From positions 1 to 64,000 of the forward strand of contig CAXLNC010001113.1 in the NCBI GenBank assembly GCA_964187785.1: a DNA stretch of 64,000 bases. Reading direction: 5' to 3'. The notes under the pieces were generated by a model. The model ran no database searches, had not been told where the DNA came from, and saw only the letters and a list, made by a program, of their open reading frames with translations. The translations under genes were made by a program, and so were the position numbers. Source of the DNA: Amphiscolops sp. MND2022. Its lineage: Eukaryota. Positions 7,392-59,246 of this stretch are shown in pieces; within the stretch, counting starts at the first letter, position 1, and the number at the start of each line of letters is the position of its first letter.

Positions 7392-7594
7392 TCAAGATCT
7401 TCACACACAGCTTCCACAACAACCACCAAAAGCACAACAAGGAGCTTGCAGAGAACCTTGCTTTCAATCCTTTGGTTCATCTTCTTGCTTAGCAACATCC
7501 TGGTTGACAAGCAGCTTGCAGATAAACCTTTTCAGGAAGAACAGCTTCAGCAACAGCTTCAGGATACCATACAGGAGAAGGCGAGAAGCTTGAG

Positions 7595-10102
7595 TTGCAG
7601 GAGCACCATGCAGAGCTTGCTTTCAACTTAGCTTGTAGCCACCAGCTTCAACATAACAACCGGAACAACCCAGCTTTGACAACAGAGCCTTGGGAGAATG
7701 CGCTTGGAATGAACCTTGCAGAGCTAGCAGCTTGGAACATTCAGCTTTTCAACCACAACCCCGACAACATCACCATAGAGCTTGCAAAGACCGAGCTTCA
7801 GCACAAGAAGAAGAAGCAGACCAACATAGCTTCTCAGCAGCTTGGTCAGCAACAACTTAGCTTACAACAACCAGACGCAGCAATACAGCTTCAACAGCTT
7901 TGTCTACAAGATCCAGCTTCAGCAACCAACAGACAGCTTCCAAAGGAATCTTTGTCTTCAACGTGTCTTTCAGACAGCAGCTTGGATCCAGCAGCCAGTC
8001 TCTCAGACAAACTTAGCTTCTCAAAGCAGAGGCTTTCAGATCAGGATCTTCCAGACAACAGCTTTGACAAGAACAAGCAGAAGCAACCCTTAGAGAAGGA
8101 GAATCAAGAGAAGAAGCTTCAGGTTCAACTTCTCTACTACAAGTTCTTTCCAGAGAACCTTGGGCAACAACTTTCAGAACAGCAGCTTCAGGACGGCAAT
8201 CTTGACCAGACAAACTTTCAGCAGCTCAGCTTCGAACAGCCCAGCTTCAGAAAGAAGATCTTGAACAATGAGCTTGCAACAAACCTTGCGAACAACAAGA
8301 CCTTTGAGGAGAACCTTTTCTTTCAGAGCTTCTTCTTTGACAACTTGACCTTCCAGAAGAAAGCTTCAGGCAAGGTAGTCGAGAAGAACTTCTGCAAGAA
8401 GCAGCTTGCAGAGAGCAGCTTTACCCAGCCAGGAAAAGAAGCTTGCACAGAACAACTTCTAACAACTTGCTTTCCAACAGCAAGTGCCAACAAGCAACTT
8501 TACAGCAGCTTGGTTCAGCAGAGTGTCGCCAAAGCAACTTCACATAGAGACCTTTCCCCAGCTTCCTCTCAAAGAGCCACTGGGCAGAAAGAACTTCTTC
8601 ACAGAGAGCTTCCAGAAGCACAGCCTGAAGACAGACCTTCTGCAAGAACACCTTTGCAGAGAACAGCTTGCAGAGAAGAACTTCTACCACACCAGCTTCT
8701 ACAACAACAACTTTCCAGAAGAGACCTTCACCAAGACAGCTTCTCAGACAGCAGCTTGACAGAAGAGAGCTTCAGAACAGCAACTTCTCAGACAGCAGCC
8801 TTGAGAACACGACCTTCAGACAGGCAGCTTCAGAGACAGCAGCTTGGAAACAGAAACTTTCAGAACAGCAGCTTCGAAAAGAACACCTTTGACACAAGCA
8901 GCTTCTCAGAGCACAGCTTTGAGGCCACCACCTTTGACAAGAACACTTTGGCAGCCACCAGCTTCCAAAAGAGCACCTTCAAAGACCAGGCCTTTGCCAA
9001 GGGCAGCTTTGAGAAGAACAGCTCGGAAGACACCAACTTAGCAGAGAACAGCTTCAAAGAGACCAACTTCCAGGAAGAGACCTTCCCAGCAGCGAGCTTT
9101 GAAGCAAGCAGCTTGAGAGCAGAGACCTTCACAGACACCAGCTTTGAAGAAGAGAACTTCTCAGAAAACAACTTTGAGAACAGCCGCTTCACAGACAGCA
9201 ACTTAGACAAGAACAGCTTTGACAAGCACAGCTTCACCAAGAGCAGCTTCAAGAAGAGCAGCCTTGAAAAGAGCAGCTTGGACAGGAGCAACTTACACAG
9301 GAGCAGTTTGGACAAGAGCAGCTTCCCAGAGAGCAGCTTGGACAGGAGCAGCTTCGAAGAGAGCAGCTTTGCCAAGAGCCGCTTTCCGGAGAAGAGCTTC
9401 ACCGAGCACAGCTTTCTACAGCACAACTTCTACAAGAGCCCCTTCGAAGAAAGCAGCTTCGACCACAGCAGTTTCAACCAGAGCAGCTTCGAAGAGAGCA
9501 GCTTCGACCAGAGCAGCTTGGAAGAGAGCAGCTTGAACAGCAGCTTTGAACAGAGCAGCTTGGAGCCGAACAGCTTCGAAGACAGCAGCTCTGAAGCAAG
9601 CAGCTTCAGAAGCACCAGCTTTCCAGAAGACAGCTTGACAGCAGCAGCCAGCTTGGCAGACAGGCGCTTTAAGAGACCAGCTTTGCCAACTGAGCTTGCA
9701 CAGCTTGAGCTTGACAGCCACGCTTTGCACACCTTTCAGCAAAGCAGCGTGGCAGTCGGCAGCTTCAAAGAGAGCAGCTTGAGAACGAGCAGCTTGAGGA
9801 AGAGCAGCTCGACAACGAGCAGCTTTGAAAAGAGCAGCTTCAAAGAGCACAGCTTAGAAGACAACAGCTTGACAAAAGAGCACTTCGACAAACACAGCCT
9901 CGAGAGCAACAGCTTTCAGCAGGACAGCTTTCAGCAAAACAGCTTTAAGCAGGACAGTTTTAAGCAGGACAGCGTTCAGCAAAACAGCTCTAAGCAGGAC
10001 AGCTTTCAGCAAAACAGCTTTAAGCAGGACACCTTTAAGCAGGACAGCTTTCAGCAAAACAGCTTTCAGCAGGACGGACAGCTTTCAGCAGAACAGCTTT
10101 AA
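7595..10102 (+). CDS. Extra 3' ORF with a long x-S/N-F/L-x-x pentapeptide repeat array (function unknown)
   Basis: 835-aa ORF; about 50 consecutive pentads from about 8850. The non-repetitive part shares motifs with 47032-49530 (QLCLQDP, YYKFFPEN, NNELAT). The array continues after a frameshift into ORF 10188-10760. Confidence 0.6.
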   Translation: MQEHHAELAFNLACSHQLQHNNRNNPALTTEPWENALGMNLAELAAWNIQLFNHNPDNITIELAKTELQHKKKKQTNIASQQLGQQQLSLQQPDAAIQLQQLCLQDPASATNRQLPKESLSSTCLSDSSLDPAASLSDKLSFSKQRLSDQDLPDNSFDKNKQKQPLEKENQEKKLQVQLLYYKFFPENLGQQLSEQQLQDGNLDQTNFQQLSFEQPSFRKKILNNELATNLANNKTFEENLFFQSFFFDNLTFQKKASGKVVEKNFCKKQLAESSFTQPGKEACTEQLLTTCFPTASANKQLYSSLVQQSVAKATSHRDLSPASSQRATGQKELLHRELPEAQPEDRPSARTPLQRTACREELLPHQLLQQQLSRRDLHQDSFSDSSLTEESFRTATSQTAALRTRPSDRQLQRQQLGNRNFQNSSFEKNTFDTSSFSEHSFEATTFDKNTLAATSFQKSTFKDQAFAKGSFEKNSSEDTNLAENSFKETNFQEETFPAASFEASSLRAETFTDTSFEEENFSENNFENSRFTDSNLDKNSFDKHSFTKSSFKKSSLEKSSLDRSNLHRSSLDKSSFPESSLDRSSFEESSFAKSRFPEKSFTEHSFLQHNFYKSPFEESSFDHSSFNQSSFEESSFDQSSLEESSLNSSFEQSSLEPNSFEDSSSEASSFRSTSFPEDSLTAAASLADRRFKRPALPTELAQLELDSHALHTFQQSSVAVGSFKESSLRTSSLRKSSSTTSSFEKSSFKEHSLEDNSLTKEHFDKHSLESNSFQQDSFQQNSFKQDSFKQDSVQQNSSKQDSFQQNSFKQDTFKQDSFQQNSFQQDGQLSAEQL

Positions 10103-30449: not shown

Positions 30450-32120
30450 TTCCAGCTTATTGACTGCATAGCTACTTGTAAGCTGCTTCAAGTTTTCATG
30501 GTTCCAGAGTACTTCGTATTTTGAGTGACCAGGGCACTGAATTTGTCAATCAAGAGTCTGAGAGGCATGCTAGACAGCATGGAACACACTTGGCCACATC
30601 ACCAGCACATCAACCACAGAGTAACGGTGTTGCAGAGGGGCTAGTGGGTCTCGCTAAGCAACGCACACGTCGTTTACCTCTAGCTGCAGGGCTTCCAGAT
30701 TTCTATTGGAGCTATGCCGTGAGATTTGCTGCAGAGATGCTTCGTCATAAAGCTTTAGGATTCCAGTGGCGTGTACCAGCTTTTGGAGAAGCAGTCGGTA
30801 TGTGGCGCTCACATGACAAGAAGCAGGCTAAGTCAGCACATCACAGAGGTGCAGTTGGCAGGTTGATTGCTATTGACCCATGGGGAAATGGTACTTGTGT
30901 TCTGATTGCCAAAGGAAGTGATCTCCATGATCCAGAGCTTCTACATGGTCTTCAACCCAAGACAATTGCAGTGGAATGTCTTCGACTAAGCCAGCCTAAA
31001 GTTGTACCTGAAGGTTGGACGTTGGAACCAGGATGCATTGAAGCAATTTGCGTCCAGATGGCAAACCATTTGCACACCAGAAGGTAAAGACCTATGGCTT
31101 AAGATGGATACTGGCCAGACACAATACACTTCACCCTTTGTCGCAGAGGTTAAACCGGACTCATCAGATCCAGTTGAGGAACCAATAGCGTATTTGAGAG
31201 AGGCAACAGATCCAGCTAATTCCGTGCAGCGACCAGAAGTTCTTGTGTTTCGGTCGACCAGCCTACGCGTGTGCGGGATTCGCTCACCAAGACAGTTCCT
31301 AAGGCTAGAATCATGCCTAATCGGGTAGTGATGAGTACATCTGGTGCTCAGTATGATAGATGGAAACAGGCTACTCAGAAGGAATTACAAGCTTTTCTCA
31401 AGACAGCTTGGACAGAACCAACTCCAGAGTTGCGCGCACGACACTTCGCAAACAAGAAGAAGGTCGTCATGCAGCTATTGGTATTCAGTTTGAAACCTAT
31501 GACAGCTGAGAAGAAACCTCAAGGATTCGTTGGTGATGAGTGTGAGAAGGCCAGAGTTTGTCTTCAAGGCCAGAACCATGAGGGCTTTCAGGTCCAGCTC
31601 CACGACCAACGCAGACGCACATCTTCTCAGACTGTTCTTGGCAGTTCAAGCCAATCCCAAGCATGTTCTTGCCAGCTTTGACGTGATCAACGCGTTCCTG
31701 AATGCAGAGTTGTCTGAAGATGTCATCATTCTGACACAACCCGCACCAGGGTTAATACAACTTGGTCTCGTGAAACCTGGTACTCTCTACCAATGCACCA
31801 AGGCATGCTATGGTTTGAGAGAAGCTCCCAAATTGTGGGAAGAAGCCAGAGACAAGACCTTGACGTCCTTTGTCTTCCAGATTGACAATGTTGAGTACAG
31901 TCTGAGACAGAGCACCTATCATCCCAATCTATGCTTTGTTGTTCGTGCACCTTGTCAACATTCGTCTAAGAAAGTTCGCTTGCCAGATGATAGCGACCTA
32001 CCTGACATTTCAGTCTTTGGCGAACATGAGCACGTTGCAGCATTCCAAGTATATGTTGATGATTTTCTAGCAGCAGGACCTAGAGATATATTGCAACCGC
32101 TTCTTACCAGACTTCTTGAT
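30450..32120 (+). pseudogene. Decayed Ty1/copia integrase-RT fragment
   Basis: IN motifs SDQGTEF and PQSNGVAE; RT motifs SFDVINAFL, CYGLREAPKLW and VYVDDFL; several frameshifts; truncated at both ends; no LTR seen. Confidence 0.85.
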
Positions 32121-32630
32121 CAAGATGGGTGCAGTGAAGTCTTTCCAGGGTGGGAACCATATCAATAAGAAGGTACCAGCCCAGTTTGCGCAATCACCGT
32201 TGCCAATTGAAAGCTTCCTCCACATCCAGACTTGGCACACTAGGCATCCTACTTCCGGCCAGGCTTATGCATTGGAGTTCAATGTCAGCTTTGCAGGGGT
32301 GTCAGGCATTGCTTTCAATGTCCCTACCTTGTGCCAGCATCGGTGGAATACCAGTGTGAATTGGTCCCAGCCGACCGCAGATGTTGACTTGCTCGGAATG
32401 TGTGGTCGTCGCCAGGATCTAGAAGCCACACTCCAGGCTATGGGACTTGATCACCGCAAATTGCCTCAGAAGCGCGATCCAGGTTATCGGCATACATTGC
32501 CATCTGATGAGGAAATCCAACAGCAGGCGCATGCCGAGCATATGCGAGCATTGATGTCAGGACAGGCACCGCCAAACTTTGGCTCTCAGGCTTCAAGTTC
32601 ACAGGCACCGCCTCAGTCTTCGAGTGTTTC

Positions 32631-32836
32631 TGTGTTGTCTATATGCAAGAATAGACTGTGCGCAGTGTAGGTCAAGTATGCAGAGCAAGCAAAGCAGATA
32701 TAAGGGCGCTAGATAGATCGCTATGCAGTCTTCCTTTTGCACTCATGCCCTTGGAGTCTTGAGCCAAGTAGGGCGTCGAATGACATCATCATGCTGTCGA
32801 TCAGTAGATCAAGGTTGCAAGCTGCATCCCTTGACA
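32631..32836 (-). repeat. 3' LTR of the copia element
   Basis: 205/206 identical to 45160-45365. Confidence 0.95.
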
Positions 32837-32846
32837 CTCCTCCTTC
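32837..32846 (-). promoter_or_regulatory. Polypurine tract GAAGGAGGAG
   Basis: Directly precedes the 3' LTR on the minus strand. Confidence 0.85.
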
Positions 32847-32979: not shown

Positions 32980-35109
32980 CTAGCGCTGTTGCTTCTTCTT
33001 GGCTTCTGCCCATGGATCACTCATGGAACCTGAGGCCATCGAAGGATTCCTGACATATGGGGCTGGTTTGACCTGCACCATTGAAGCTGAGCTTGAGGAC
33101 GCATGTGGAGGTGGAGGAACTGGAGGGGCTGGCTGCAATGGATGTGTCATAGATGGCATCCAATGTGGTTGTGCAAACGTGGAACGCTTTGCCCTCACCA
33201 TTTCTTCAGTCATGCCATCGATCCATTTGTATACCTTCTCCTGCTCGTCCTTGATATGCGTCAGAATGCCATCTGCCCATAGACGACAACACGTGGACTC
33301 ATAAGCAAGCTTCTCGCTATACTTCTGCAACTCCCTGAGGTTCTCAATGGATGCTGTGCTGCGGTTGAGATCCGTAATGGACTCTACTGGTTGAGGAGCT
33401 CCATGTCGTCCATATGAAGGATAGTGTGGACTCTGCATGGTTTTGCAATGACGAATGAACGTCGACAAGGGGCTCGGCATGTGAGCACAGTATGGAATGT
33501 TGAGATCCCATAGATTCGCTGGAATTGGAAAGTCCGGGTTGGGAAGGATGACGTCAGGCTGCATTGGAGCCATGCCTGGAACTGGACCTGAAAAGTCACA
33601 GGGCTGATGCTCCTGAATGGGCTGGCATCCTCCATGAAGTGAGCTAGCTGGAGCCATTCCATGCATCATTGCTGCTGCTGCACATTGAGTTGGTGGTGGC
33701 ACCTCTTGTGGCGGCTGTTCCTTGGAGGCCGGACCATCGACATCATCATGACTAAGATGAATTCCCCATCGATAGTCTGCTGCTCTGCCTTCGGACTTAG
33801 CCTTCTTGTACTCTTGCTTGTACCAATTTGGTTGACCTGGGCCTCCATTGACCTGTGCTAATGGACACTGGAATGGAGCATGTCGGCCTTTGCATAGAGT
33901 ACAGCGATGTTCTTTGAGAGGATTCCTATGCTTCTCAACATGCTTGCATGCAAATCTCGGATGATTGCTCATGTCGCAATATGCACAGTAGATGCGTGGA
34001 TCTTTGCAATTCTTCTCAAGCTTGAGTGAATCCCGGATCCACTTGATGTAGTCATCCTGCTTGTCTGGTGGCAACTGATGGCTCTTCTCTACTGGGCATG
34101 GAATTTCAGACATTGGGAACAAGAAGTCGAGGTTGGTATCGATGACATCGAGAGTACGCCATTCGAGACCTTTCTCTTCTGGATCGGTACGCTGCGAAAT
34201 GTCAACTGGAACAGACTGGCCTCGCTTGGAAGATCCCTTGGACCACTTCTCTGAGCTGGATCCTTCCCATGTCCATGACTTGCTGACGGACTTGGAACCT
34301 TTCTGCTTCTGCCAATCCTTGAAATCCTCAAGTCGACCCATCCATGGCTGTTGCTCATGGAGTCCCAATGCTTCAACCATCGAGGTTTCCACATCACGCA
34401 TGTAGGTAACCCACTCACAATCTTGTTCTGGACAGATCACCATCTGCTTGTGCCTCTCGTTGGGCTTGGCATAGAAGGTATGGCAATCATTCCTTGGAGC
34501 TGGGATCTGCGGAAAGCCATACGTGGATGCAAGTATGGAGTTGAGCTGCTGGATCATGTCTGTGTCATCGCGAAAGGACATAGATGCTTCGAGAGTACAA
34601 TCTCTGGCAACCTTTGAAGCGATGCATGGAGTCAAACTGATCATAGCTCCGCACATGACTGTGCTGGCACAATCCGCAAACGCGCATGCTGGATGAGACT
34701 GGCTCTTGTTGCTCAATTGAATACGAACTAGAAGTGTCGTCTCTTTGCACAACAATGGATTCGCTTTTTCCTGTCTCAATTGATCCGCATATCCTGCTGC
34801 ATATTCCCATTGGTAGCAATATGACCATGTCGTTGGACAATATGTTCTCTGCTTCTCCTCTGCCTTAGTGTCACCACTTGGAAGGATAGTCTTGCTGTAG
34901 GCAATGCCCAACGCATGCATCATGTTCGTAGATTTGAATGCTGCTATCGGTGACTGACTCTGTAGCGCGTCCTTGGCAAACTTGGCAGTGTGCTCATTGT
35001 CGGGGGCAATGTGCCATGGAGGCATACCAAATGTCAATGCATCCCAACATTTGTAGACTGCGGTCATGGGATATGTCCACATGGGTTGAAGTCCTTGAAG
35101 CTTAGACAA
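32980..35109 (-). CDS. Accessory ORF, C-terminal part: two zinc knuckles, Pro-rich region and a predicted coiled coil
   Basis: 709-aa open frame containing CAYCDMSNHPRFAC and CTLCKGRHAPFQC (about 33866-33987); overlaps the upstream ORF in another frame. Confidence 0.7.
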   Translation of the reverse strand: MSKLQGLQPMWTYPMTAVYKCWDALTFGMPPWHIAPDNEHTAKFAKDALQSQSPIAAFKSTNMMHALGIAYSKTILPSGDTKAEEKQRTYCPTTWSYCYQWEYAAGYADQLRQEKANPLLCKETTLLVRIQLSNKSQSHPACAFADCASTVMCGAMISLTPCIASKVARDCTLEASMSFRDDTDMIQQLNSILASTYGFPQIPAPRNDCHTFYAKPNERHKQMVICPEQDCEWVTYMRDVETSMVEALGLHEQQPWMGRLEDFKDWQKQKGSKSVSKSWTWEGSSSEKWSKGSSKRGQSVPVDISQRTDPEEKGLEWRTLDVIDTNLDFLFPMSEIPCPVEKSHQLPPDKQDDYIKWIRDSLKLEKNCKDPRIYCAYCDMSNHPRFACKHVEKHRNPLKEHRCTLCKGRHAPFQCPLAQVNGGPGQPNWYKQEYKKAKSEGRAADYRWGIHLSHDDVDGPASKEQPPQEVPPPTQCAAAAMMHGMAPASSLHGGCQPIQEHQPCDFSGPVPGMAPMQPDVILPNPDFPIPANLWDLNIPYCAHMPSPLSTFIRHCKTMQSPHYPSYGRHGAPQPVESITDLNRSTASIENLRELQKYSEKLAYESTCCRLWADGILTHIKDEQEKVYKWIDGMTEEMVRAKRSTFAQPHWMPSMTHPLQPAPPVPPPPHASSSSASMVQVKPAPYVRNPSMASGSMSDPWAEAKKKQQR

Positions 35110-36551
35110 GATAGGTCATCAACATACGTCTCTGCCATGAATCCCATCACCGGTGTGCCTTCCCAGATCGTAGATGGCTCCTGCCATTGACGACACGCAC
35201 CATAGATCTTGGAATCATCAAACATGAGGATTTGATATCGAGGCACATAGTCTTTGAGTTGAGCTTCCAATATCTGCATCAAGTACTGAAACTTGCTCGC
35301 ATCTTCCCAATCACGACACCATATGACAATCATCATCGGCTGATCCAATAGACTGAACCAATGTGGTGCATTGAGGACCCATGCTGCTGGCTCGGTCATA
35401 TAGATCTTGTGCACGGCATGATTCTTGGTCACAGTGATGACATTGTCAGCTGGGAATAGACCATTGAGCGTGAAGGTAGTCAACTCTGGCACTTGTGCAC
35501 GGTTTGCACGAAGCTCGTCAGGTGATTTGCTCGGACTTGGACCTCCCTGGAGAACATATGCAAGTTGTTCATATAGAGGCTTGGACCAATCAATATCACG
35601 AGGAGACTTGACCCTAAGGTACTTTCCTTCATCGTTCAATCGAGCTTGCCTGTCCTTCTCATAAGAGTTTGACGGCATACACGCAATCTCTGGAGGTGTA
35701 GGCATGTAGGTAGCTGGAGGACCTTTTGCACATGGTCTGCATGGTTGAGGTATCTCAACAGATGCTGAAGCTGCTACATAGACCTCTCCTTCTGCTTGAG
35801 GAGGCTTTGGGAATGCCTTGTGTCGAACCTGCTTGCTCGGTGGGGCTGGCTCTGTTGGTGGCTCCAATGCATGCTTATTGGCACTTGAACTCGTCTCCAT
35901 AGAAGGATGCTTCGGAAGCGCTGACAGTGGAGGACGAGGTGGATGACTTGGAGTCATCGGAGTTTCTGCCAATGGAAGCGCAATGCTTGGAACACCTTTA
36001 GGCCTTGGAGCTGCTGGCGGTGGAGGTTGAACTCCTGAACCAATCCTTGGAGGCTCTGTCTCCTTGATGAACACTGAAGGCATCGGACGTCCACATGTTG
36101 GTGGAGCCTTCTTCACAGTTGGCTGTGAGTAAGAAGTGTTCCTTGGATCATTTTGACGAAGGGCCTCATGGACTCGTGGAAGCTCACGCTGTGATGCAAT
36201 ACCTAGAGGTGGTGGGCCAACTGGAAGTGATGGAGCATTGAGTCCTTTAGCTCGGATCTCGGCTTCCCATTCTCTGATACTGCGTTCGTGTGCTTCATGT
36301 TCAGCTGCTTGTGCCCGCTGCCTGTGCAAGATATCTTGTTGGATAGCCTGATCCATGGTATGGAGAGCACGGGCATCCTTGATTATCTTTGCATACTCTT
36401 CTGTAGTCCATCGACCATCGTTGACTGGAACCTCGAGAACTGCTTCCCTTGGAGATATGGCTGGTTCTGTAGCCACTTCTTCTTGTGCACGAGCTTGAGC
36501 TGCTTCGGCTTCTTCAACTGCATTCGCCATATCATTCATCCAATCAGCCAT
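35064..36551 (-). CDS. Accessory ORF, N-terminal part: helical, Pro-rich and a folded-looking domain
   Basis: 495-aa ATG-initiated ORF between pol and the 3' LTR; probably joined to 32980-35109 across a 1-nt frameshift near 35110. Confidence 0.7.
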   Translation of the reverse strand: MADWMNDMANAVEEAEAAQARAQEEVATEPAISPREAVLEVPVNDGRWTTEEYAKIIKDARALHTMDQAIQQDILHRQRAQAAEHEAHERSIREWEAEIRAKGLNAPSLPVGPPPLGIASQRELPRVHEALRQNDPRNTSYSQPTVKKAPPTCGRPMPSVFIKETEPPRIGSGVQPPPPAAPRPKGVPSIALPLAETPMTPSHPPRPPLSALPKHPSMETSSSANKHALEPPTEPAPPSKQVRHKAFPKPPQAEGEVYVAASASVEIPQPCRPCAKGPPATYMPTPPEIACMPSNSYEKDRQARLNDEGKYLRVKSPRDIDWSKPLYEQLAYVLQGGPSPSKSPDELRANRAQVPELTTFTLNGLFPADNVITVTKNHAVHKIYMTEPAAWVLNAPHWFSLLDQPMMIVIWCRDWEDASKFQYLMQILEAQLKDYVPRYQILMFDDSKIYGACRQWQEPSTIWEGTPVMGFMAETYVDDLSCLSFKDFNPCGHIP

Positions 36552-37388
36552 GATGGAGATAGATGGAAGGTAGGCTTAGATACGCAAGCTTGGAGGTGCT
36601 TATGTGCTGCTAGCAATTCGTGCGTGAAAGCACACACTTGCTGGATCCATAAACGGCTATTCGATCCATAATGAAGCATGGACTGTACAAATGAAAACTG
36701 AAATGGAAAACTGTACCACATCTGTTGGGACAAAGAGATCGTCGAAACAGTTCATCCTCAGCTGCTTGGCAACTCTGATAGAGGGAACATGACATTGGCC
36801 AGCATTGTGACCGCAGAAGCACATGTTCTTCGTGACGATCGATTGCATCAGTGCCATTGTCACCAAACAGACATCAAGACCTATGAACAACCATTCCTGA
36901 CTGCCAGATCTACAATTTGGCACAGACGAAATGGAAGCAACATGGTCTGGACCATACTTGGTCGGTCATGCAACAAATTTCATAGACCATCGATAGAGCA
37001 CAACTTGAACAATTCCCTTGGAAGTGTTCTCTCCGACTCATGCACTCCACAATGACAGGCGGAGGCTGGTCATGAATTGGAACCTTCTCACGATGGAAAC
37101 ATGAATGGGCCATGAGAATGCAGGTCCACACTGTCGGGCGGAACATGCTCTCATGATTCGACCTCAATCTGAACTTCACTCCACAATGTCAGGCGGAGGA
37201 TGTCAGACATTGAGCATAGATTCGAATCACCCAAACATCGTGACAGCAATGTGCTCCTGATGAATTCATATGTACATAGAAGACAATATTCACATGCTCA
37301 AATGAAAACTTGTTCCAAATGAGACAAACGCATATATACATTGAAATAGTTTGAAACCTGGCACACGAGACAATGATGTGTTGGAGGA

Positions 37389-40300
37389 TTAGTCGTCGAT
37401 GAGACATAGGTCTTCCATGATCCTTGGGAGGCGACTTGCACCCAATCCCTTGGTCAGACTGTCAGCGGCCATGTCAGAGGTGGACTGATATGAGAATCGA
37501 ATTCCTCTCCTAGACATTTGATGTAGCCAGAGGGCTTTGACGCTGATGTGACGAGTTCTCCATGCTGTCTCTGATCCATTTCGAACCATATGGAGTGCGG
37601 CTGCATTGTCACTAGAGACTTCGATCTCGCAACATGCATTGGTCATCTCTGCAATTATGATAGAGATGTTCTCTCCTTGCTGAAGAGCTTCACTCGCTGC
37701 AATCAATTCTGCTTCACAAGTGGACTTGGCTACCAGATCCTGTCGACTGGATCGCCATTGAACAAGGTTACCACCCTTTCGAGAACTAGAGGTGATACCA
37801 TGATAGACAACAATTCCTTGCTGGCTCTTCTCCCCTGTCGGTGCAAAGGAGGCATCTCCTAGAACCCATAGCTTTTGCTTGGATGTTGGAGGTACTGGAA
37901 CGTAGCGCAATGCATAGCTCAGTGTATACTGCAAGTACTGACAAATATGTTTGACTCGGACAAAGCATAGATCTGCGTCATGAGTGATCAGGCTTGCTGC
38001 TCGACTCGTTGCCCATGCAATGTCTGGTCTGCTTCGAAGAGCTATCCAATTGAGACAACCTACGATGGCAGGTAAGTTGATAACCACCTGATCAGAATTG
38101 TAGTGTAGTCTTGGATTTGGCTTAGCTGCTGCATCTGCATCAATGATGTCTGCTGCGATGAGCATTTGAAGTGAATCTGAGTACTCTGCTATGGTCTGGT
38201 CGTGTGAGGTGGTGGATGACGGGCTGAATGACTCCTGATTCCCTGGAGTCGTCCGAGTCTTCAATTGGAGACTTGGTTCGAACTTCAGGAGCACCTCAAG
38301 AATGTATTCCATCTGGTTCAATAGAATAGAACCTTCCGGCATGTCGAGTTCTTTGCTTCGAGCGGCATCGACTCTCTCAAGATTCATGCCTAGAAATCGA
38401 AGAATTGGAACACAATCCGAATCAGGACCGAGGTGTTCTGGAGTGCTCGTCTTCCATATACCCTGAACTGCTTTGATCAGCGTCTCATTCAATGTTCGTG
38501 GACCTGCAATCAAGAGGTCATCTACATAGACACCCACATAGCCTAGAATCTTGTGCTGATGAAGTTGAGCTGTCCATTCGTCGCTTCGTAGCTTGTTGTC
38601 GAATGGAGGAATCCCCATCGTGGATGCTTTGGGGCCTTCTGCAATGAACCATAGGCTGGGATGAATGTAGCTTTGAACAAGGTGGACACTTCTGTCATTG
38701 TACACAAACTGAATGTCTTGGAGCTTCTGGTCTCTCTCCTGTTGCCAGAGACGAGGGGCTTCTCTAAGTCCATAAATTGCCTTCTTGACACGCCATACAG
38801 TGTTGGGCTTGACAATATCCATCTTCACTAGAATCGGCGGTGGAGTGATGAGGACAGTATCATCCTCATGGATATCTGCATTGAGGAAAGCACTCGTGAT
38901 ATCCACACTTGACCATGTAGTATCTTTGGAGCATGCTAGACTAAGCATCAATCGCAAGAGTGGAGCATCCAAATTGGTTGTTGTCGTAGAGTGTTCTCCC
39001 CATGTAGCAAAGTTGCCACAAATCACCAATCGACTCTTGTGCTTGTATTCTTCATGGACATCGTTCTCTTCCTGCTGTGACTGTGTCAGGGGCTTGAGGA
39101 CAAAGACCATTTGGCACGGTAGCGGCCATTTCCCTTTCTCCTTCCATGCAACAACAAGAGCTGGGTCGGCATCATCTATAGCCATGTTCTGCAGAAAATT
39201 CTCAATTTCCTTGTAGATCGACATGAGCCATTTCTCACGCATAGCACCTGTAGAAGATGCCACTGTTTTCGGTGAGACTGGTATGCTCTTGGCCTTGATC
39301 ACAGTGTTGGACTTGCCATCATTGGGCTGTGTCCGCTTAGGCTTTCGATCATTTGCTACTGTTGGATGATCAAACTGGACGACTTCACGTCGCTTCTGAG
39401 CTGCAGGTAAATCAGATGGACATGTAACATCTGGGACATCCTTCAGGACTGGAGATTGACTAGAGGCATGCATCATGCGGGCGATAAACATCTGCTTGGA
39501 AGTAACATCAGGCTCGACAGAGTACGGGACTCCGGAATAGATCTTCCCTTGATGATCGAGCCACTTGAACTTTCCCAGTTCATCCTGAATACTTCGCCAT
39601 GGCATGTTCGTCTCTGGTGTATCACGTGATGGACTCGCAGTAAGATGGTATCTGCTTGGATCTAGACGTCTTGGTGCTAGACCTTTGATCACCACACCAT
39701 CCTGCAGAATGCGGGTGGATCCGCTCTGCCATATATCAATGTCTAGTAGGTATCCAACACTTCCTCGATCGTCCAAAGACTTTGCTTGTGCTTTGTCATG
39801 GGATCTCCAAATTCCCACTAGCTGTCCAAATAGAGGATATGTCCAATCTCTTCCTAGAACTCGCTCTCTCATCATGTGTCCAGCAAATCTGCACGCATAT
39901 GACCACCATTCTCTGCCTAGATCTGCTTGTTTGAGCATTCGTCGTACCGTGGTCTTCAACATTCCGACCATTCTCTCAGCAATACCATTAGAAGATGGCT
40001 GATGGGCTGGAGAGTACGATAGAACGATATTCTTCTCCCAGCATAGATCTCGAACTTGTTTGTTTGTGAATTCTCCACCTCCATCTGCCTGGATGCGGGT
40101 AACTCTGGAACCCTTGATTTGGTGCAAGTTGCGATTGTCGCACATGAGAAGTGCTTCCTTCAACGCATTTGACGCACACAAAGCATCTTTCTTGGGCATT
40201 GGGATGAAGAAAGGTAACAACTTCGACACATTGTCAACCTCAATGGTGACTGCTGCAACTAGACAATATTTGTGACCATCTGCTGATGCTTCAAATGCTG

Positions 40301-43300
40301 CTAGATCACAATGCATAATGCCTGGATGTCTGTCTGCATTCTTGCGTCGATGATTGATCTTGCTTCCTGCCTCTTCCATACATACTGGACATGTCGGATC
40401 CTTAGTAAGGTGACCAGACTGATGATGCTCAAGCCATTTTGGGTTGATGGTCTGGGTGTCAGACTCCCATTCTGGAATGCTGTGGATCATCTCCTGCATA
40501 TTGTCACGAAGACTTGTGCTCATGGAGGTTTCATCAGTCTCCATCGATTGCAAGGTGATAACTTGATCTGATTCTGCGAGATACGATGCATTCAAGTTGT
40601 AGTCAGACATGTCATCGAACTGCTCTGGTGTGTACTGGTAGTACTTGGCATCAAGATAGCGCTCGACTATGATGTCGGGCTGGAGCTCTTCAATCTCATC
40701 ATGCACTTGACACTGCATAGACTTCCAATAGTGACATCCGGGACGATGAGGTTGACAAGAAAAGAGAACTTCATGACAAGGTTTGGTCTGTTGCAGTAGA
40801 TTTGGTGGAAATGGTTTGGTGTACATCATGAGTGTAGACCATATAGCATCGGGCGGGATCACCAGCGCTTCGACAATGGCGCGGGTGTCAGGCTCTGCCA
40901 ATGTCGTGGGAGGACATAGATCGCCTTTGGTCAGACCAACTGCAAACTGCTTGGATCCGCCTTGCCGGCGTAGAGAGTCACAGGCCTGTTCAATTTGTGC
41001 CCTGGACGCAATGTATTGTGTTCCGACTGAATTGACATATGGAGTCGTCTCACACATCTTCGCTTTCACACCATTGGATAGATATGAAGTCATCTTCGGA
41101 TCCTGTGCTGCTCTTTCCCAGAACTGCCAATTGAACACTGTGTCGGGATGGGCTTGGTGAACCCATAGAGCTCTCCGAAGTACTTCAAACTGCATTTGAC
41201 TTGCATATGCCATGTTGTTCCTGATCTCGAATTGAGTCATCGTTCGCCACTTGCCTTTATCTTTGCATTGCATGACTGCTGTCCCATTCTCCCATACAAA
41301 CTTCGTATCCAATAGATTGGTTAGTCTGCCCAATGGAAGTAACGGGTGAGCTCTCTCTTGTGCATAGACCTCATTTCTCCAACATTTGGCCTTTTCCTTT
41401 CCCACAGCCAGATTGACCGTAACTTCGAATGACCTTGCTCCCTTTGGTAGCATATGTCCTGGCAATAGAACATGTGTAGCACCGCTATCTAGAAGGGCGT
41501 AGGCCGGGTCTCTGACTTGTGATCTGGAGAAACATAGATCTGGTTCATCGCATCCTGAGTCCATATCCAAATCTGCTTGGTCAGGGATAGTAGCCTGACT
41601 CAGCGCGGTGTGTGCTTGACACATGGACTTCTGCACCGGGAACCACATCTCGCCAAACCATGACTTGTCTAGACTGTCACATGAATCGCTGCTGTCGAAG
41701 TACAATGTGAAGGTCTTCATAGTCTTTGCATCATGACCATAGAGAAAGATTGGTCTCGTGATAGACAGTGACCATTTACCTGGCCTGAACACTGGTAGCT
41801 TCTTCTGAGGTTCTGCTACAGTGCATATCATATAGTCAGCATCATTCCATGTAGAATGTCTCCATGTCAGCTTCGACTTGGTGCTCATCATAGCAAATAG
41901 AAAATCATTTGTCATGCAGGAACGTGCCTCTGGTTTGGTCTTGGGTTGGGATCGGTCATTCTTCGTCGGTGAAGACTGTGCTGGCCGTGGAGCAATAGAC
42001 TTCGGCGTGGTCTTCCCCTTTGACTTCCCTTTTGACCTAGATCCTTTCCCTTTGCCTTTCTTTCCTTTCTGGGCCTCATACTCTTCAATCTCGCTTGGAT
42101 CATCCTGCCATTCTATCTCTGCCCAATCACCCACAGCCTCTTCCCATTCTGCCTGCTTTGCTTTAGGCTTCACTGGGCGAGTACACTGCGAGGTTGGATG
42201 ACGAGTGGATCCGCAGATCGCGCATCTCCCTGGCTGTCGCCTTGGATGATACTTCGGACAGTGATGACCTTGAGAGCAACCATTTGATTTCCAGTAGTCA
42301 TCGCATGGGGGTCTCCATTGAGACGGTGAGCCTTTGCCATTCTTCTGCTTGCCTTTTCCTTTGGCAGGCACTTTCCCCTTGCTCGCACTAACATACTCAT
42401 CATACATCGAGTGCTTGACTGAAGTACTGGAACCATTCACAATCTGGGTAATCTTGTCTTGTTCCTCATGGAGTCGAAGTTCTATGAGGAATTCTGCAAG
42501 CATCGCATAGACTCTGTCGAGAGTAAGACTAGATTCTCGCAACTGATGCTTCAAATAGAGACTATCCCAAATGTTGCCCACTGTGCGATAATATTGAGTA
42601 ATGCCGCTGAGGACTTCTTGCACGAATGTTATGATAGTCCTTGGATGTACATGCTGTCCTGTCTTCATGCACAGATTGAGTCTGTGCTGCATTTCTTCAA
42701 GCCAGACACACCCTTGATCCAAAGTAGAGGGAGTGACCTTAGGTGGCGTCAAGAGCTCGCGTTGCATAGTGACCTCGTTGATATCTTGGGGCAAGATGAG
42801 CTGCTTCATCACATACCATGCTATGAGTTCTGCTGTGCAATATCCATGTCTCATGCAAGCATCTGCAATGGATCTCGGAATTGCATCGAGTAGCTCTGTG
42901 CGGAGAACGCTCTCAACCGCATTACTTGCTTGTGGAATATGCTTCCTGTCACCTAAGATATATGCAGGCTCTAGACTTGCTCTTTGAGAAGGAGTGCTTT
43001 GAAGCCATCGATCATGTCTTGCTCGCGCATGATCTAAAATCTCTTCGAGCCAGTACTTCTGTGCGTCACCTCTCCATGTGGCTATAGCAAATGTACATCG
43101 ATCATACCATGATTCTAACAACTGTCTCATCTCCAATATGCTGCACGCCTTGTAGTTGGACGGTAGCATGAGCTTCGGCAATGCCTTTCTTGACCTGTCC
43201 AATGGAGCCCATGGATCAGAAGATCTCGGTGGTTGCACAATGCCTGGAGGTGTAGGTGGAGTGGACCCTGGAGCTCCTGATCCTCCTCCTGTCTGTTGGG

Positions 43301-44675
43301 GTGGTGTTCCCTTCGGCATTGAATCTGATCCTGAGCCTCCGCCTGGACTTCCTCCTGGTGGTGGAGGTGGCGGTGGCGGAGTTGCTCCTCCTGACCCAGT
43401 GCCTCCTCCTGATCCACTGCCTCCTCCTGATCCACTGCCTCCTCCTGATGGATTGCTGCCTGGACAGCTCCATTGAGTACTGCTGCCATTCCCCGGATTG
43501 GGGGGGTCTCCCGAAGGACCTCCTCCTCCTGCTGCCTTTGGCCTGGTGTGCAGAGGCGTCCATTGAACTGGATATGAATCTGCACCTAGAGCTGCAGTGG
43601 CATGTGGAACTGGTGGGGGCGGTGGTGGCGGTGGCAATGGAGTACTTATGTCTCTTCCTCTTCTACCTCCGGGACCTGACGATTGTCCGGGAACGCCTCG
43701 ACCTAGTTGAACGCCTCCTGGAGCCCGTACTTCACTTTGCTGGAGTGCCGTGGATGGCTGCTCATCTTCTGCATTATTCGGACGAATCAACGTTCCATTG
43801 ACACATCGAGCTGCTATTACTGGTACATGTGGAAGTGGTGCAATAGGAGAATGTGCTTGCTGAAGTTCTTCTTGATCAGGTACTGCTATCTGCTGACACA
43901 GTTCATCTGATTCTTCTGCATCGAGTGCTGTACCGAAGAGTTCACATCCTTCATCACTCCCTCGACCATAGAAATCTCCCCATTGAGCTGGTGGTACATG
44001 AGCTGGGGGTGTCGCGCTATACTCTTGTGTCATAGGGCTCGGTGCGTACTGCACTGGAAAACCAACCGGTGACTGTAGGCCTGATGAGGTAGGTCGACAT
44101 GGAGTCTCGAGTTCATGTGGTAGAATCCATCTTGAGGACTTCCCTGGAGACAATGTGTTCAGAGTATTCTCGGGTTCTGCATCGACTGTTCTGCTTGGGA
44201 CTGTCTGCTCAATCCTGCACATGTTGGCTGCTAAGTGCGCCTTCATCTCGGACTTCTCTCGCATGTTAAGCAACTCTGTGTGGAGCTCATGGATTTCTGC
44301 TCTATAATCTGCCTGTTGGCTTAGATGCCTCTTCCAGAGGATCTTCTCCTTGTCCGGCTGCTCGTCAGCGTACTGCCGCAGTTCCTGGACCATTCGCTGA
44401 TACTCTTGAGCTGTATGCGCTGCTTCTTGTTCCTGTAGATGTGCTGCTCGTAGGGCTTGTGCCTCGAGTTGTATTCGTCTCTCTTGAGTGTCATGAAGCT
44501 TTTGATGTTCAACATTCGTCTCATGCATCTTCGACGCAAACGACTGCACCTGGGCGCTGTTGGATTGACATAGAGCTTGTAGGTCAGCTTCTGCTTTTTG
44601 CCATTTAGCTTTGAAATGTTGATCCATGGCCTCTTGTGCTTCGGTAGCATTTTGTGCCATCTGGGCACTTTCCAC
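37389..44675 (-). CDS. gag-pol: Copia Gag-Pol polyprotein
   Basis: 2428 aa: CCCH plus CCHC fingers, protease LLDSGAT, integrase HHQSGH...CPVC / HCD / QADGGGEF / SNGIAE, RT SVDITSAFL / IYGLREAP / YVDD, RNase H GDAS / CEAEL / SSDN / ADSLTKGL. Confidence 0.95.
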   Translation of the reverse strand: MESAQMAQNATEAQEAMDQHFKAKWQKAEADLQALCQSNSAQVQSFASKMHETNVEHQKLHDTQERRIQLEAQALRAAHLQEQEAAHTAQEYQRMVQELRQYADEQPDKEKILWKRHLSQQADYRAEIHELHTELLNMREKSEMKAHLAANMCRIEQTVPSRTVDAEPENTLNTLSPGKSSRWILPHELETPCRPTSSGLQSPVGFPVQYAPSPMTQEYSATPPAHVPPAQWGDFYGRGSDEGCELFGTALDAEESDELCQQIAVPDQEELQQAHSPIAPLPHVPVIAARCVNGTLIRPNNAEDEQPSTALQQSEVRAPGGVQLGRGVPGQSSGPGGRRGRDISTPLPPPPPPPPVPHATAALGADSYPVQWTPLHTRPKAAGGGGPSGDPPNPGNGSSTQWSCPGSNPSGGGSGSGGGSGSGGGTGSGGATPPPPPPPPGGSPGGGSGSDSMPKGTPPQQTGGGSGAPGSTPPTPPGIVQPPRSSDPWAPLDRSRKALPKLMLPSNYKACSILEMRQLLESWYDRCTFAIATWRGDAQKYWLEEILDHARARHDRWLQSTPSQRASLEPAYILGDRKHIPQASNAVESVLRTELLDAIPRSIADACMRHGYCTAELIAWYVMKQLILPQDINEVTMQRELLTPPKVTPSTLDQGCVWLEEMQHRLNLCMKTGQHVHPRTIITFVQEVLSGITQYYRTVGNIWDSLYLKHQLRESSLTLDRVYAMLAEFLIELRLHEEQDKITQIVNGSSTSVKHSMYDEYVSASKGKVPAKGKGKQKNGKGSPSQWRPPCDDYWKSNGCSQGHHCPKYHPRRQPGRCAICGSTRHPTSQCTRPVKPKAKQAEWEEAVGDWAEIEWQDDPSEIEEYEAQKGKKGKGKGSRSKGKSKGKTTPKSIAPRPAQSSPTKNDRSQPKTKPEARSCMTNDFLFAMMSTKSKLTWRHSTWNDADYMICTVAEPQKKLPVFRPGKWSLSITRPIFLYGHDAKTMKTFTLYFDSSDSCDSLDKSWFGEMWFPVQKSMCQAHTALSQATIPDQADLDMDSGCDEPDLCFSRSQVRDPAYALLDSGATHVLLPGHMLPKGARSFEVTVNLAVGKEKAKCWRNEVYAQERAHPLLPLGRLTNLLDTKFVWENGTAVMQCKDKGKWRTMTQFEIRNNMAYASQMQFEVLRRALWVHQAHPDTVFNWQFWERAAQDPKMTSYLSNGVKAKMCETTPYVNSVGTQYIASRAQIEQACDSLRRQGGSKQFAVGLTKGDLCPPTTLAEPDTRAIVEALVIPPDAIWSTLMMYTKPFPPNLLQQTKPCHEVLFSCQPHRPGCHYWKSMQCQVHDEIEELQPDIIVERYLDAKYYQYTPEQFDDMSDYNLNASYLAESDQVITLQSMETDETSMSTSLRDNMQEMIHSIPEWESDTQTINPKWLEHHQSGHLTKDPTCPVCMEEAGSKINHRRKNADRHPGIMHCDLAAFEASADGHKYCLVAAVTIEVDNVSKLLPFFIPMPKKDALCASNALKEALLMCDNRNLHQIKGSRVTRIQADGGGEFTNKQVRDLCWEKNIVLSYSPAHQPSSNGIAERMVGMLKTTVRRMLKQADLGREWWSYACRFAGHMMRERVLGRDWTYPLFGQLVGIWRSHDKAQAKSLDDRGSVGYLLDIDIWQSGSTRILQDGVVIKGLAPRRLDPSRYHLTASPSRDTPETNMPWRSIQDELGKFKWLDHQGKIYSGVPYSVEPDVTSKQMFIARMMHASSQSPVLKDVPDVTCPSDLPAAQKRREVVQFDHPTVANDRKPKRTQPNDGKSNTVIKAKSIPVSPKTVASSTGAMREKWLMSIYKEIENFLQNMAIDDADPALVVAWKEKGKWPLPCQMVFVLKPLTQSQQEENDVHEEYKHKSRLVICGNFATWGEHSTTTTNLDAPLLRLMLSLACSKDTTWSSVDITSAFLNADIHEDDTVLITPPPILVKMDIVKPNTVWRVKKAIYGLREAPRLWQQERDQKLQDIQFVYNDRSVHLVQSYIHPSLWFIAEGPKASTMGIPPFDNKLRSDEWTAQLHQHKILGYVGVYVDDLLIAGPRTLNETLIKAVQGIWKTSTPEHLGPDSDCVPILRFLGMNLERVDAARSKELDMPEGSILLNQMEYILEVLLKFEPSLQLKTRTTPGNQESFSPSSTTSHDQTIAEYSDSLQMLIAADIIDADAAAKPNPRLHYNSDQVVINLPAIVGCLNWIALRSRPDIAWATSRAASLITHDADLCFVRVKHICQYLQYTLSYALRYVPVPPTSKQKLWVLGDASFAPTGEKSQQGIVVYHGITSSSRKGGNLVQWRSSRQDLVAKSTCEAELIAASEALQQGENISIIIAEMTNACCEIEVSSDNAAALHMVRNGSETAWRTRHISVKALWLHQMSRRGIRFSYQSTSDMAADSLTKGLGASRLPRIMEDLCLIDD

Positions 44676-45066
44676 GACATAGCACTTCTTCGGCTTCAGT
44701 CACTACCCTAGATTTCCAATCTTTAGCTTCACTGCTGAGTAGACGCATATGGGCTAGTAGTTCTTCTTCTTGCATGAAGTGACCGTCTCTCTGGGCTTTG
44801 ACTTGCTCAATTTGCGCATCCCTTAGAGATAGCTGAGCTCGTAGCCAAGCAACTTCATCAGTGCGAGACGGCATAGTAGTTCTCAATGCTACTTGATGTG
44901 CAAGATGCTCTTGGTGAGACCTGCCCATAGAGGCTCGTTGAGCAACTGCTTGTAGGCATCCATCTTGTGCATCGATTAGACTGCTCATCCAGGTAGACAT
45001 GTGCTCATGGACCCCGCGGATGGCCGGCATCAAGTCTATACCTTGGACATGTGGAACCATTGACAT
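44605..45066 (-). CDS. Probable true N-terminus of Gag, separated by a 1-nt frameshift
   Basis: The frame is open from the LTR through the PBS; first ATG at 45064-45066; the coiled-coil sequence EEVLCR continues as ESAQMAQ in the main ORF if one G near 44675 is removed. Confidence 0.55.
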   Translation of the reverse strand: MSMVPHVQGIDLMPAIRGVHEHMSTWMSSLIDAQDGCLQAVAQRASMGRSHQEHLAHQVALRTTMPSRTDEVAWLRAQLSLRDAQIEQVKAQRDGHFMQEEELLAHMRLLSSEAKDWKSRVVTEAEEVLCRGKCPDGTKCYRSTRGHGSTFQS

Positions 45067-45149
45067 AGTAGGTTGAAGTCGCGGAACCAACTGATCTTCT
45101 CTTCTGGGGCGTTTAGGCACCAACTGCCTCTCCTGCTCTTCCACTTGAC

Positions 45150-45159
45150 GCTCATAACC
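45150..45159 (-). promoter_or_regulatory. Primer-binding site GGTTATGAGC (anticodon arm of tRNA(iMet); half-tRNA priming)
   Basis: Abuts the CA end of the 5' LTR; complementary to GCUCAUAACC, as in the Ty5/Drosophila copia type of PBS. Confidence 0.85.
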
Positions 45160-45365
45160 TGTGTTGTCTATATGCAAGAATAGACTGTGCGCAGTGTAGG
45201 TCAAGTATGCAGAGCAAGCAAAGCAGATATAAGGGCGCTAGATAGATCGCTATGCAGTCTTCCTTTTGCACTCATGCCCTTGGAGTCTTGAGCCAAATAG
45301 GGCGTCGAATGACATCATCATGCTGTCGATCAGTAGATCAAGGTTGCAAGCTGCATCCCTTGACA
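45160..45365 (-). repeat. 5' LTR of the copia element
   Basis: Direct repeat of 32631-32836. Confidence 0.95.
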
Positions 45366-56348: not shown

Positions 56349-56710
56349 GCTGCCAGTCTCGCGGTAGTTGCATGTTTACCTTTGCTTTGCTGAATGAGTA
56401 GATGTCATCTTCTCATGTTGTTGTTTCTCTCATACGTCTGTCAGATCTGGCCCTCAGGTGATCGAACTTGTGTCAACCATGCTCTTAGGTACAAATTCTC
56501 CAGCCTTAATTCGACAAAGAAGTCCGGCGTTTCCTTGGCCAAAGTCAGCTAAAAATCGACCAAGATCGGCGAAATTCGGCTAAAAAACGGCGAAAAATGG
56601 TTAAAATTGGCCAAACAATTGGGTGCCAAACAGGGAGGTTTTCGTTTCACAGTGAAGGTCCTGAGAATTAGCACAGAAATGCTCGTTGTTCACATGCATG
56701 ATTGTCTCAG
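56349..56710 (+). other. Predicted GC-AG intron
   Basis: CAG|GC donor and CAG|G acceptor join kinase subdomain I to subdomain II in frame. Confidence 0.7.
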
Positions 56711-59246
56711 GACTCTGGCGCTTCCGGTGAGCCCAGGTTCCATGCAATCAAGATTGCGAGCGACTCACAGAAAGCATTAAATAGTTTTGCGGTCGAGGCA
56801 GTTGCAGCCTCTCAAGTGCGAGACATGGCTCAGCAGGTCAGCCATTGGCACGGTAGGGCTTTCTTACCATTGGTGCACGGAGTGGGCATTGGTGGTGTCA
56901 CTAAGACATCTTCCTCCCCTGCAGTGGTGCAGAATCTTGCCATGCTGGTCATGCAACTTGCTGATGGAACCCTGAAGGACAGAAACTTTGAAGGAGGGGC
57001 ACTGGAGATGGTATCATGGGCCTTGGCAAGCACACTTGCCTTGTTGAATGCTTCCGGCTTTATACATGGAGACTTGAAACCTTCAAACGTATTGTGGCAA
57101 CCGTGCTGTGATACCCAGTCGGAGCATATGTTTCCTGGCCTGGATGGCTGGCCTCTGCTAACTGACTTTGGCAGCGCTCAAGCGTTCAGCACCATGCATC
57201 CAAACAAAAAGGCTTTAGTTGTCAGTGACAAGATCCGAGCTGGCGGCTGGACAGAAGCATATGCAGCCCCAGAAGTTATCATTGAGGGTGGGAAATGGCA
57301 GACCATCAAAAGTGACATGTTCAGCTGGGCGCGGACCATTCAGGCTGTCAGCAAGTACCCCGGAAATTTGCATCCAACATTGCACAACTTGTGCGAGGCA
57401 TGTATGAATGCTGATCCTGAGTTGCGACCAGCAAGCTTTGCAGAGATTGCTGATACCATTGAGAGGGCCAATCCAGCATGCCTTCGGTGGGGCAGGATGT
57501 TGTGGCAGCAACAGCAGGCATACTTCGAATCTGCAACACATGCCCAGAAGCTCTCTGGCAGCTTATGCAGGCAGGGGTTGCAGATCCTTGTTTCCCAGCG
57601 TCAACAGATCTCTGAAGATCACTTAGCAGAGGCTGATGCTGTGGAGCTGCTTGCAAACCAGTATAGTCGAATTGGCGACGACATCGGTGCTACAACTCTT
57701 CTCCAGGAAGCCGTGAAGGTGGATCCACGGAGAGCGACCTCTGTACGCATCTTGACGAACCTTGGGAACGCCTGTGGAAAGCTTGGGGATGCAGCCAAAC
57801 AAAGGTATCTTCTCGAGAGGGCCTTGAAGATCCAAGAGACCTACTTTGGCAAGGACCACTTTGAAGTGGCGACCACTCTGATAAGCCTCGGGAACGCCTG
57901 TGGAAAGCTTGGGGATGCAGCCAAGCAAAGGGATCTTCTCGAGAGGGCCTTGAAGATCCAAGAGGCCTACTTTGGCGAGGACCACTTTGAAGTGGCGACC
58001 ACTCTGACAATTCTCGGCATCGCCTATGGAGATCTTGGGGATGCAGCCCAAAAAAAGGATCTTCTCGAGAGGGCCTTGAAGATCAAAGAAGCTTACTTTG
58101 GCGAGGACCACTTTAAAGTGGCGATCACGCTGGGGAGCCTCGGGAACGCCTATGGAGCTCTTGGGGATGCAGCCAAACAGAGGGATCTTCTCGAGAGGGC
58201 CTTGAAGATCAAAAAAGCTTACTTTGGCGAGGACCACTTTGAAGTGGCGATCACTCTGACAAACCTCGGGAACGCTTGTGGAAAGCTTGGGGATGCAGCC
58301 AAACAAAGGGATCTTCTCGAGAGGGCCTTGAAGGTCCAAGAGGCCTACTTTGGCGAGGACCACTCTGATGTGGCGATCACTCTGGCAAACCTCGGGAACG
58401 CCTATGGAGCTCTTGGTGATGCAGCCAAACAGAGGGATCTTCTCGAGAGGGCCTTGAAGATCCAACAGGCCTACTTTGGAGAGGACCACAAGGAAGTGGC
58501 GATCACTCTGGGGAGCCTCGGGAACGCCTATGGAGCTCTTGGGGATGCAGCCAAACGAAGGGATCTTCTCGAGAGGGCCTTGAAGATCCAAGAGGCCTAC
58601 TTTGGAGAGAACCACTTTGAAGTGGCACTCACTCTAACAAACCTCGGGATCGCCTATGGAGCTCTTGGGGATGCAGCCAAAAAAAAGGATCTTCTCGAGA
58701 GGGCCTTGAAGATCGATGAGGCCTACTTTGGAGAGGACCACAAAGAAGTGGCGATCACTCTGGGGAGCCTCGGGAACGGCCTATGGAGATCTTGGGGACG
58801 CAGCCAAAAAAAAGGATCTTCTCGAGAGGGCCCTGAAGATCAAAGAAGCTTACTTTGGCGAGGACCACTTTAAAGTGGCAATCACTCTGACAAACCTCGG
58901 GAACGCTTGTGGAAAGCTTGGGAATGCAGCCAAACAAAGGCATCTTCTCGAGAGGGCCTTGAAGATCCAAGAGGGCTACTTCGGCGAGGACCACTTTGAA
59001 GTTGCGATCACATTGCATAATCTTGGGGTTGGAGCAAGGCACATCATGGAAGGCCATGAAGCCGCACAAGAGACTTGTGAGAGGGCATTGCAGATCTTTG
59101 TTGAGACTTGCGGTCCCGAGCATCCATATGCTGTGAAGATGCACAGTCATCTCCGAGATGTTCTCCAGAAGTATGAGGCATCTTTGTGTTTGCTTGCACG
59201 GTGTGAGCACGCTCTTTCTTCTGTCCTTTGCTCTTGCCCTTCCTGA
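56711..59246 (+). CDS. Ser/Thr protein kinase fused to a 42-aa TPR repeat array (one frameshift; 3' end uncertain)
   Basis: HAIK, HGDLKPSN, DFG, APE and SDMFSW motifs; ten 126-bp repeats plus one divergent repeat; an extra G at 58778-58779 shifts the frame into ORF 58716-59246. Confidence 0.85.
57752..59012 (+). repeat. Ten tandem 126-bp coding repeats (kinesin-light-chain-type TPR)
   Basis: Consensus LGNAYGALGDAAKQRDLLERALKIQEAYFGEDHFEVAITL. Confidence 0.9.

Follow-up and report, generated by a model that had tools for sequence, protein, structure and literature searches.

Among the retrotransposons of Symbiodinium, copia elements are the most abundant (PMC5890265); heat activates some of them (PMC5776459). 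They are nonetheless drawn with gag-pol only. Extra sense-strand open reading frames (ORFs) after pol are already known in plant Sirevirus (SIRE) copia elements and in rotifer long terminal repeat (LTR) elements. A 3' forward extra ORF of undefined function is reported in 74% of SIRE elements, in 19 groups (PMC6317226, PMC8515867, PMC7264820). In this study, we describe a 12.7-kb Ty1/copia LTR retrotransposon with a large third gene. It lies on the minus strand, 45,365->32,631, of positions 1 to 64,000 of contig CAXLNC010001113.1 (assembly GCA_964187785.1, Amphiscolops sp. MND2022), a 64,000-nt stretch referred to as the window. The third gene is under purifying selection. We propose, at a probability of roughly 0.4, that its product is an intracellular zinc-knuckle helper, which would assist replication by binding RNA of the element itself and would be made from a separate, probably trans-spliced message.

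The locus resembles Sirevirus in that a copia element carries, between pol and its 3' LTR, an ORF in sense orientation; the SIRE ORFs at this position are heterogeneous between families. Unlike in Sirevirus, the extra gene is far longer, encodes zinc knuckles and no membrane helix, and stands in an element whose primer site is probably of the half-tRNA type. In bdelloid rotifer LTR elements, the env slot (ORF3) likewise holds varied non-envelope cargo across lineages, but that cargo is recognisable (GDSL esterase, DEDDy exonuclease, fusion protein), whereas the protein described here is unmatched (PMC5408684). Some Symbiodiniaceae retroelements carry a DNA methyltransferase (DNMT) as accessory cargo; unlike the present element, these are LINE and DIRS elements, and Symbiodinium copia is without a DNMT domain (PMC5890265). 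SmTCL1-4 of Symbiodinium microadriaticum are dinoflagellate copia elements of about 10 kb, and SmTCL3 shares the spliced-leader-like tail of the LTR and has a primer site resembling the one here (PMC5776459 and its supplement). No third ORF is described for SmTCL1-4 in the main text and 12 of the 18 supplements of that paper, figures excluded, and the literature searches listed no sense extra ORF after pol of a dinoflagellate copia element. A large, selected, family-wide third gene shows that these elements are more complex than drawn.

The gene is as follows.
32,980-36,551, minus strand: extra sense-strand gene of about 1,190 codons, with one frame break near 35,082 in the window copy.

As the original prediction had it, about 4.5 kb separate pol (stop at 37,389) from the polypurine tract (32,846-32,837). 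In the window copy this interval contains two overlapping ORFs, 36,575-35,064 and 35,115-32,980 (503 and 711 codons), with an ATG at 36,551. They had been taken for one protein, rightly so, because four sister copies read through without a stop (C336 and C125, 1,190 residues each; C730, 1,207; C94, 1,167). The frameshift had been placed at 35110; it is a one-base break near 35,082 (codon 491) in a short homopolymer run, and none of the breaks in sister copies falls at that codon. A DNA search of the same genome gave 29 matches on 26 contigs, and the 21 top-listed sister places were analysed. Single open frames were present in four of them; the others have scattered breaks, the extra gene showing 43 across copies with the window's included. 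Among 12 copies spanning both genes, break density was 0.78/kb in the extra gene versus 1.36/kb in gag-pol; one copy accounts for 42 of the 100 gag-pol breaks, and the densities are about equal when it is excluded. Most indel breaks (97/158) adjoin a run of at least three identical nucleotides, a pattern that slippage or errors in long reads would produce. Introns are absent from the gene. Protein-database matches are all unnamed; 8 of 25 are 1,190-1,209 residues long, and some represent clusters of more than 140 members.

The gene is a fixed part of the family. Absence or disruption in most family copies would have refuted the original prediction, but the relatives do not bear this out: the gene begins 0.5-1.8 kb after pol in 26 of the 32 places with a close RNase H (at least 65% identity); the other six comprise one displaced remnant, one place at a contig edge and four without the gene. 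A wider protein search returned 653 cluster representatives at E <= 0.001. Homologs down to about 30% identity also sit among gag-pol sequence: ten contigs whose homologs are distant (about 30-60% identity) were inspected, and gag-pol was nearby on nine, the tenth being covered over 7 kb only. A match to a recently captured host gene had been named as a finding that would refute the prediction; the searches gave no named homolog among the best 150 of 653 and the best 120 of 360 matches.

The ratio of nonsynonymous to synonymous substitution rates (dN/dS) of the extra gene was 0.20-0.30 in 20/20 comparisons, which share one reference copy and are not independent; a chance ORF is excluded on this basis. 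For gag, integrase and reverse transcriptase (RT)-RNase H, dN/dS was 0.02-0.09, and the extra gene evolves about four times faster than gag-pol. Synonymous distances of the extra gene and pol are similar, which fits co-inheritance. For 24 windows, each of 50 codons and compared over every pair of 16 copies, the corresponding ratio of nonsynonymous to synonymous differences (pN/pS) was 0.11-0.49; at this resolution, nothing indicates positive selection. In deletion derivatives at G000:C369 and C831 (L047, L050, L051), pol is lost and the 5' part of gag is joined directly to the extra gene.

The encoded protein consists, in order, of an acidic N-terminus (net charge -9 in the first 50 residues), a Pro-rich linker, a core, a Ser/Lys/Trp-rich stretch, a zinc module and a C-terminal segment.
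35,667-36,239, minus strand: Pro-rich linker, probably disordered, residues about 105-295.
34,453-35,654, minus strand: alpha/beta core from structure prediction, residues 300-700 of an intact sister.
33,838-34,110, minus strand: zinc module, two CCHC knuckles and three more conserved Cys/His.
33,178-33,405, minus strand: C-terminal segment, probably helical as judged by eye, including the most constrained 50-codon window (pN/pS 0.11).

Several of these parts had been read correctly from the DNA alone. Pro makes up 20-28% of residues 101-300, and the knuckles have the predicted spacings, CX2CX4HX4C at 33,987-33,946 and CX2CX3HX4C at 33,903-33,865. Their eight ligands are Cys/His in 80-100% of 19-20 aligned rows, down to about 33% identity. 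Cys819, His875 and His882 are also conserved and may give the module a third zinc site. The original prediction also saw neither a transmembrane helix nor a cytosine methyltransferase. The best 19-residue hydropathy is only 1.2-1.55 in each of three intact copies; thus, there is no clear membrane helix, and the protein is not env-like despite the sense orientation of its ORF downstream of pol and ahead of the 3' LTR. The C5 methyltransferase family of Pfam was unmatched in the two halves of the window gene and in 96 aligned members, one of which had an N6/N4 methylase match at E 0.008. No Pfam family at all matched either half at a meaningful E-value. The middle domain, described as folded-looking, gave an alpha/beta model, but no significant Pfam, PDB or fold match. 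The predicted TM-score (pTM) of the core model was 0.75; the first 190 residues were confident, and 120 of 401 residues were below 50 in the predicted local distance difference test. The protein family appears to be undescribed, and the modelled core is possibly a new fold, which makes it a target for structural work.

A conserved spacer separates pol from the extra gene.
36,552-37,388, minus strand: conserved non-coding spacer, 837 nt.
37,000-37,240, minus strand: three predicted tandem stem-loops with a common apical motif.
36,641-36,700, minus strand: pyrimidine-rich tract and conserved AG, a candidate trans-splice acceptor 89 nt before the ATG.

Spacer divergence was 0.04-0.23 versus synonymous divergence of 0.10-0.73 in the same six copies, about a third; the C94 copy gave 0.23 versus 0.73. 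The apical motif has strict matches at 37,199-37,180 and 37,065-37,046 and a variant near 37,143-37,124. It was found in 24 of 103 loci, every one of this lineage. The hairpin region had a folding z of -2.4, and one of 200 shuffles was equally good. The candidate acceptor was present in 15 of the 20 copies scanned, followed by an ATG-free leader of 69-90 nt, and many ATGs lie farther upstream of it. This layout fits a trans-spliced subgenomic message.

The position after pol was also inspected in 31 more distant copia places, picked from 150 listed RNase H matches and mostly the best-scoring on small contigs. A large sense ORF follows pol in 24 of the 31, one of them being a pol read-through; 25 were flagged at first, and one was removed as lying beyond the LTR motif. 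The occupants fall into unrelated groups, namely a ~1,020-residue orphan, a widespread family with a C2H2-like finger and DEAD/DEAH helicases. The profile of the extra gene had no match outside its own lineage among these places.

An RNA-binding helper would be expressed and would act as follows. Behind the pol stop and many upstream ATGs, the gene should be unreadable by ribosomes scanning the full-length RNA; therefore, it probably has a message of its own, which would arise by joining of the spliced leader at the conserved AG. Knuckles of retroviral and LINE proteins bind single-stranded nucleic acid, and those of this protein may do the same. The probable target would be the element's RNA, for which the three spacer hairpins are the obvious candidate site. 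By analogy with retroviral accessory factors, the helper might protect, export or package full-length RNA. Rev is an RNA-binding protein made from a spliced message and acts on a structured element in its own genome. Rev-type factors (PMC7264820) offer a possible analogy, but no sequence or fold relation to the extra protein was found. The conserved spacer would be a precise and cheap test of downstream-gene expression in a trans-splicing host.

Several observations weigh against an RNA-binding helper. The 400-residue core is not explained by known folds and is not notably basic, and the knuckles depart from the nucleocapsid pattern and carry additional conserved ligands. The hairpins show almost no covariation (2/81 pairs), so their conservation could reflect a DNA-level or packaging signal unrelated to the extra protein. 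The strict acceptor motif is absent from 5 of the 20 copies. Of the four relatives without the gene, three retain part of the spacer and one has an LTR immediately after pol; therefore, the gene is not required in cis in every relative. The unrelated proteins in the same slot elsewhere argue against one essential RNA-handling step.

A more elaborate version of the RNA-binding helper is a long shot. The protein from the trans-spliced 3' message would bind the hairpins upstream of its own acceptor through the new fold and the zinc module, thereby saving full-length RNA for packaging in a Rev-like switch, and would be one instance of a general cargo slot filled by unrelated proteins in most dinoflagellate copia lineages. 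Where every message receives a leader by trans-splicing, the genomic RNA would itself be cut at an internal acceptor.

The main rival, which we consider rather unlikely, takes up the anti-silencing or targeting role named in the original prediction: a nuclear DNA- or chromatin-binding factor that would shield the element from host silencing or steer its integration. The protein is retained yet evolves about four times faster than gag-pol, as such a factor might, and its layout of disordered linker, zinc module and helical end recurs in the unrelated C2H2-like cargo family of the same slot. Some plant extra-ORF products are nuclear (PMC7264820), and other Symbiodinium retroelements bear cytosine methyltransferases (PMC5890265). 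However, pN/pS does not exceed 0.49 in any window, and no Pfam chromatin or methyltransferase family was matched. CCHC knuckles also bind single-stranded nucleic acid more often.

An enzymatic role of the core is improbable; in this reading a strongly diverged domain, such as a nuclease or a nucleotide-handling one, would be delivered to its substrate by the knuckles, for instance in making the half-tRNA primer. The confident fold of its first 190 residues would suit an enzyme, as would weak fold-comparison rows that include helicase RecA-like domains and tRNA-synthetase chains. The probable half-tRNA-type primer site, the DEAD/DEAH helicases filling the slot in other lineages and the enzymes among rotifer ORF3s (PMC5408684) point the same way.

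A further structural protein of the virus-like particle, akin to the second Gag that the original prediction had suggested, is more doubtful still. A folded region, Pro-rich linkers and tandem CCHC knuckles of nucleocapsid type recall the layout of Gag, but a profile comparison with the element's own Gag aligned no more than 21 columns, all within one knuckle (probability 0.2). Where the core model is confident, it is alpha/beta rather than a helical capsid, and the element already has a complete Gag under far stronger constraint.

An envelope or cell-to-cell movement protein would suit the env position and orientation, as in Sirevirus (PMC8515867), but is very improbable given an acidic N-terminus and no hydrophobic stretch above 1.55 in the three intact copies. 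A passenger, whether a gene captured from the host or a neutrally evolving open frame, is largely refuted by purifying selection in all copies, the gag-pol beside distant homologs and the absence of introns, although a host paralog might lie beyond the best-ranked matches examined.

The element probably comes from a dinoflagellate symbiont co-assembled with the animal host, because its pol relatives, the spliced-leader tail of its LTRs and its placement on small unplaced contigs agree. Pol matches with an organism name were dinoflagellate in ten of twelve cases and grass in two; identity to named Symbiodinium pol proteins is just about 27-30%. The final 9 nt of the spliced leader of dinoflagellates were found in 13/13 aligned 3' LTRs. 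Downstream of other copia RNase H genes, 344 kb of sequence contained 31 occurrences of the same 9-mer versus 1.3 expected. The family is almost confined to unplaced contigs of 10-100 kb. On chromosome-scale contigs, RNase H identity was at most 38% among the matches listed, with one exception that looks like a mis-join, a probable host-symbiont chimeric join inside a chromosome-scale scaffold (G000:C11, about 51,943,500-51,957,000).

All three LTR families in the window bear the spliced-leader 3' end, about 70-75 nt from the LTR start, as do most other copia LTRs examined. The sites in the window are 45,295-45,287, 32,766-32,758, 47,085-47,077 and 54,276-54,268 (minus strand) and near 3,292 and 10,605 (plus strand). 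Besides the LTR copy, L082, L083 and L097 have another leader-like 9-mer toward the end of pol, about 660-720 nt from where RNase H starts; it could belong to the coding sequence or represent an internal relic.

The remaining features of the element are as follows.
45,160-45,365, minus strand: 5' LTR, 206 bp, TG...CA, with spliced-leader-like tail at 45,295-45,287.
45,149-45,159, minus strand: primer binding site directly after the 5' LTR, complementary to the tRNA-Met anticodon arm (putative half-tRNA type).
37,389-45,155, minus strand: gag-pol in copia order, Gag with CCCH and CCHC fingers, protease, integrase, RT, RNase H.
32,837-32,846, minus strand: polypurine tract before the 3' LTR.
32,631-32,836, minus strand: 3' LTR, with spliced-leader-like tail at 32,766-32,758.

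The element shows the hallmarks of Ty1/copia (Pseudoviridae): two TG...CA LTRs, a primer site, a polypurine tract and the protease-integrase-RT-RNase H order. The copia-type RT was matched by Pfam (RVT_2 at 1878-2002, E 1.8e-18), preceded by an integrase (rve at 1459-1568, E 0.005, below its cut-off); the finger, protease and RNase H motifs were identified by eye. In the window copy, gag-pol is broken near its 5' end and then open for 2,436 codons. The LTR pair has one mismatch in 207 compared bases, located just before the spliced-leader-like motif. No target-site duplication surrounds the window copy, and its 3' end adjoins a remnant of another copia element. Among sisters, an exact 5-bp duplication was found at C1213 and 4/5 bases at C1862; other two-LTR copies were ambiguous. 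In sister copies the gag start codon lies inside the primer binding site, of which 11 nt match the anticodon arm of tRNA-Met genes of the assembly, suggesting a possible hemivirus-like priming. These genes sit on a host-scale chromosome; the symbiont's own tRNA was not found. A tandem tRNA-Met gene array with ~213-bp spacing and some altered anticodons was noted at G000:C8, about 62.06-62.16 Mb (L105-L115).

Further ORFs were recorded in and around the slot after pol. In two other LTR elements of the window, pentapeptide-repeat ORFs of 858 and 871 codons lie between pol and the 3' LTR at 7,526-10,102 (plus strand) and 49,647-47,032 (minus strand). A DEAD/DEAH helicase follows RNase H in the copia lineage of L099:3-9998, L100, L101 and L102, and in L099 the frame continues from pol for more than 3,300 codons. 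An old, widespread 3' cargo family with 20-40% identity was found in L079, L080, L083, L087, L089, L090 and L091; its members conserve a C2H2-like finger and, as a second block, a stretch at the C-terminus, and have no Pfam match. The ~1,020-residue orphan family occupies L072-L078, and a piece of it (39% identity) lies at 32,071-32,670 (plus strand) of the window, in a decayed copia element adjoining the 3' LTR. At L071:1-1995 (minus strand), one ORF combines an integrase core with a thymidylate kinase domain (E 3e-21). The window ORF at 56,702-58,873 (plus strand) has, by eye, a kinase-like segment followed by 42-residue repeats.
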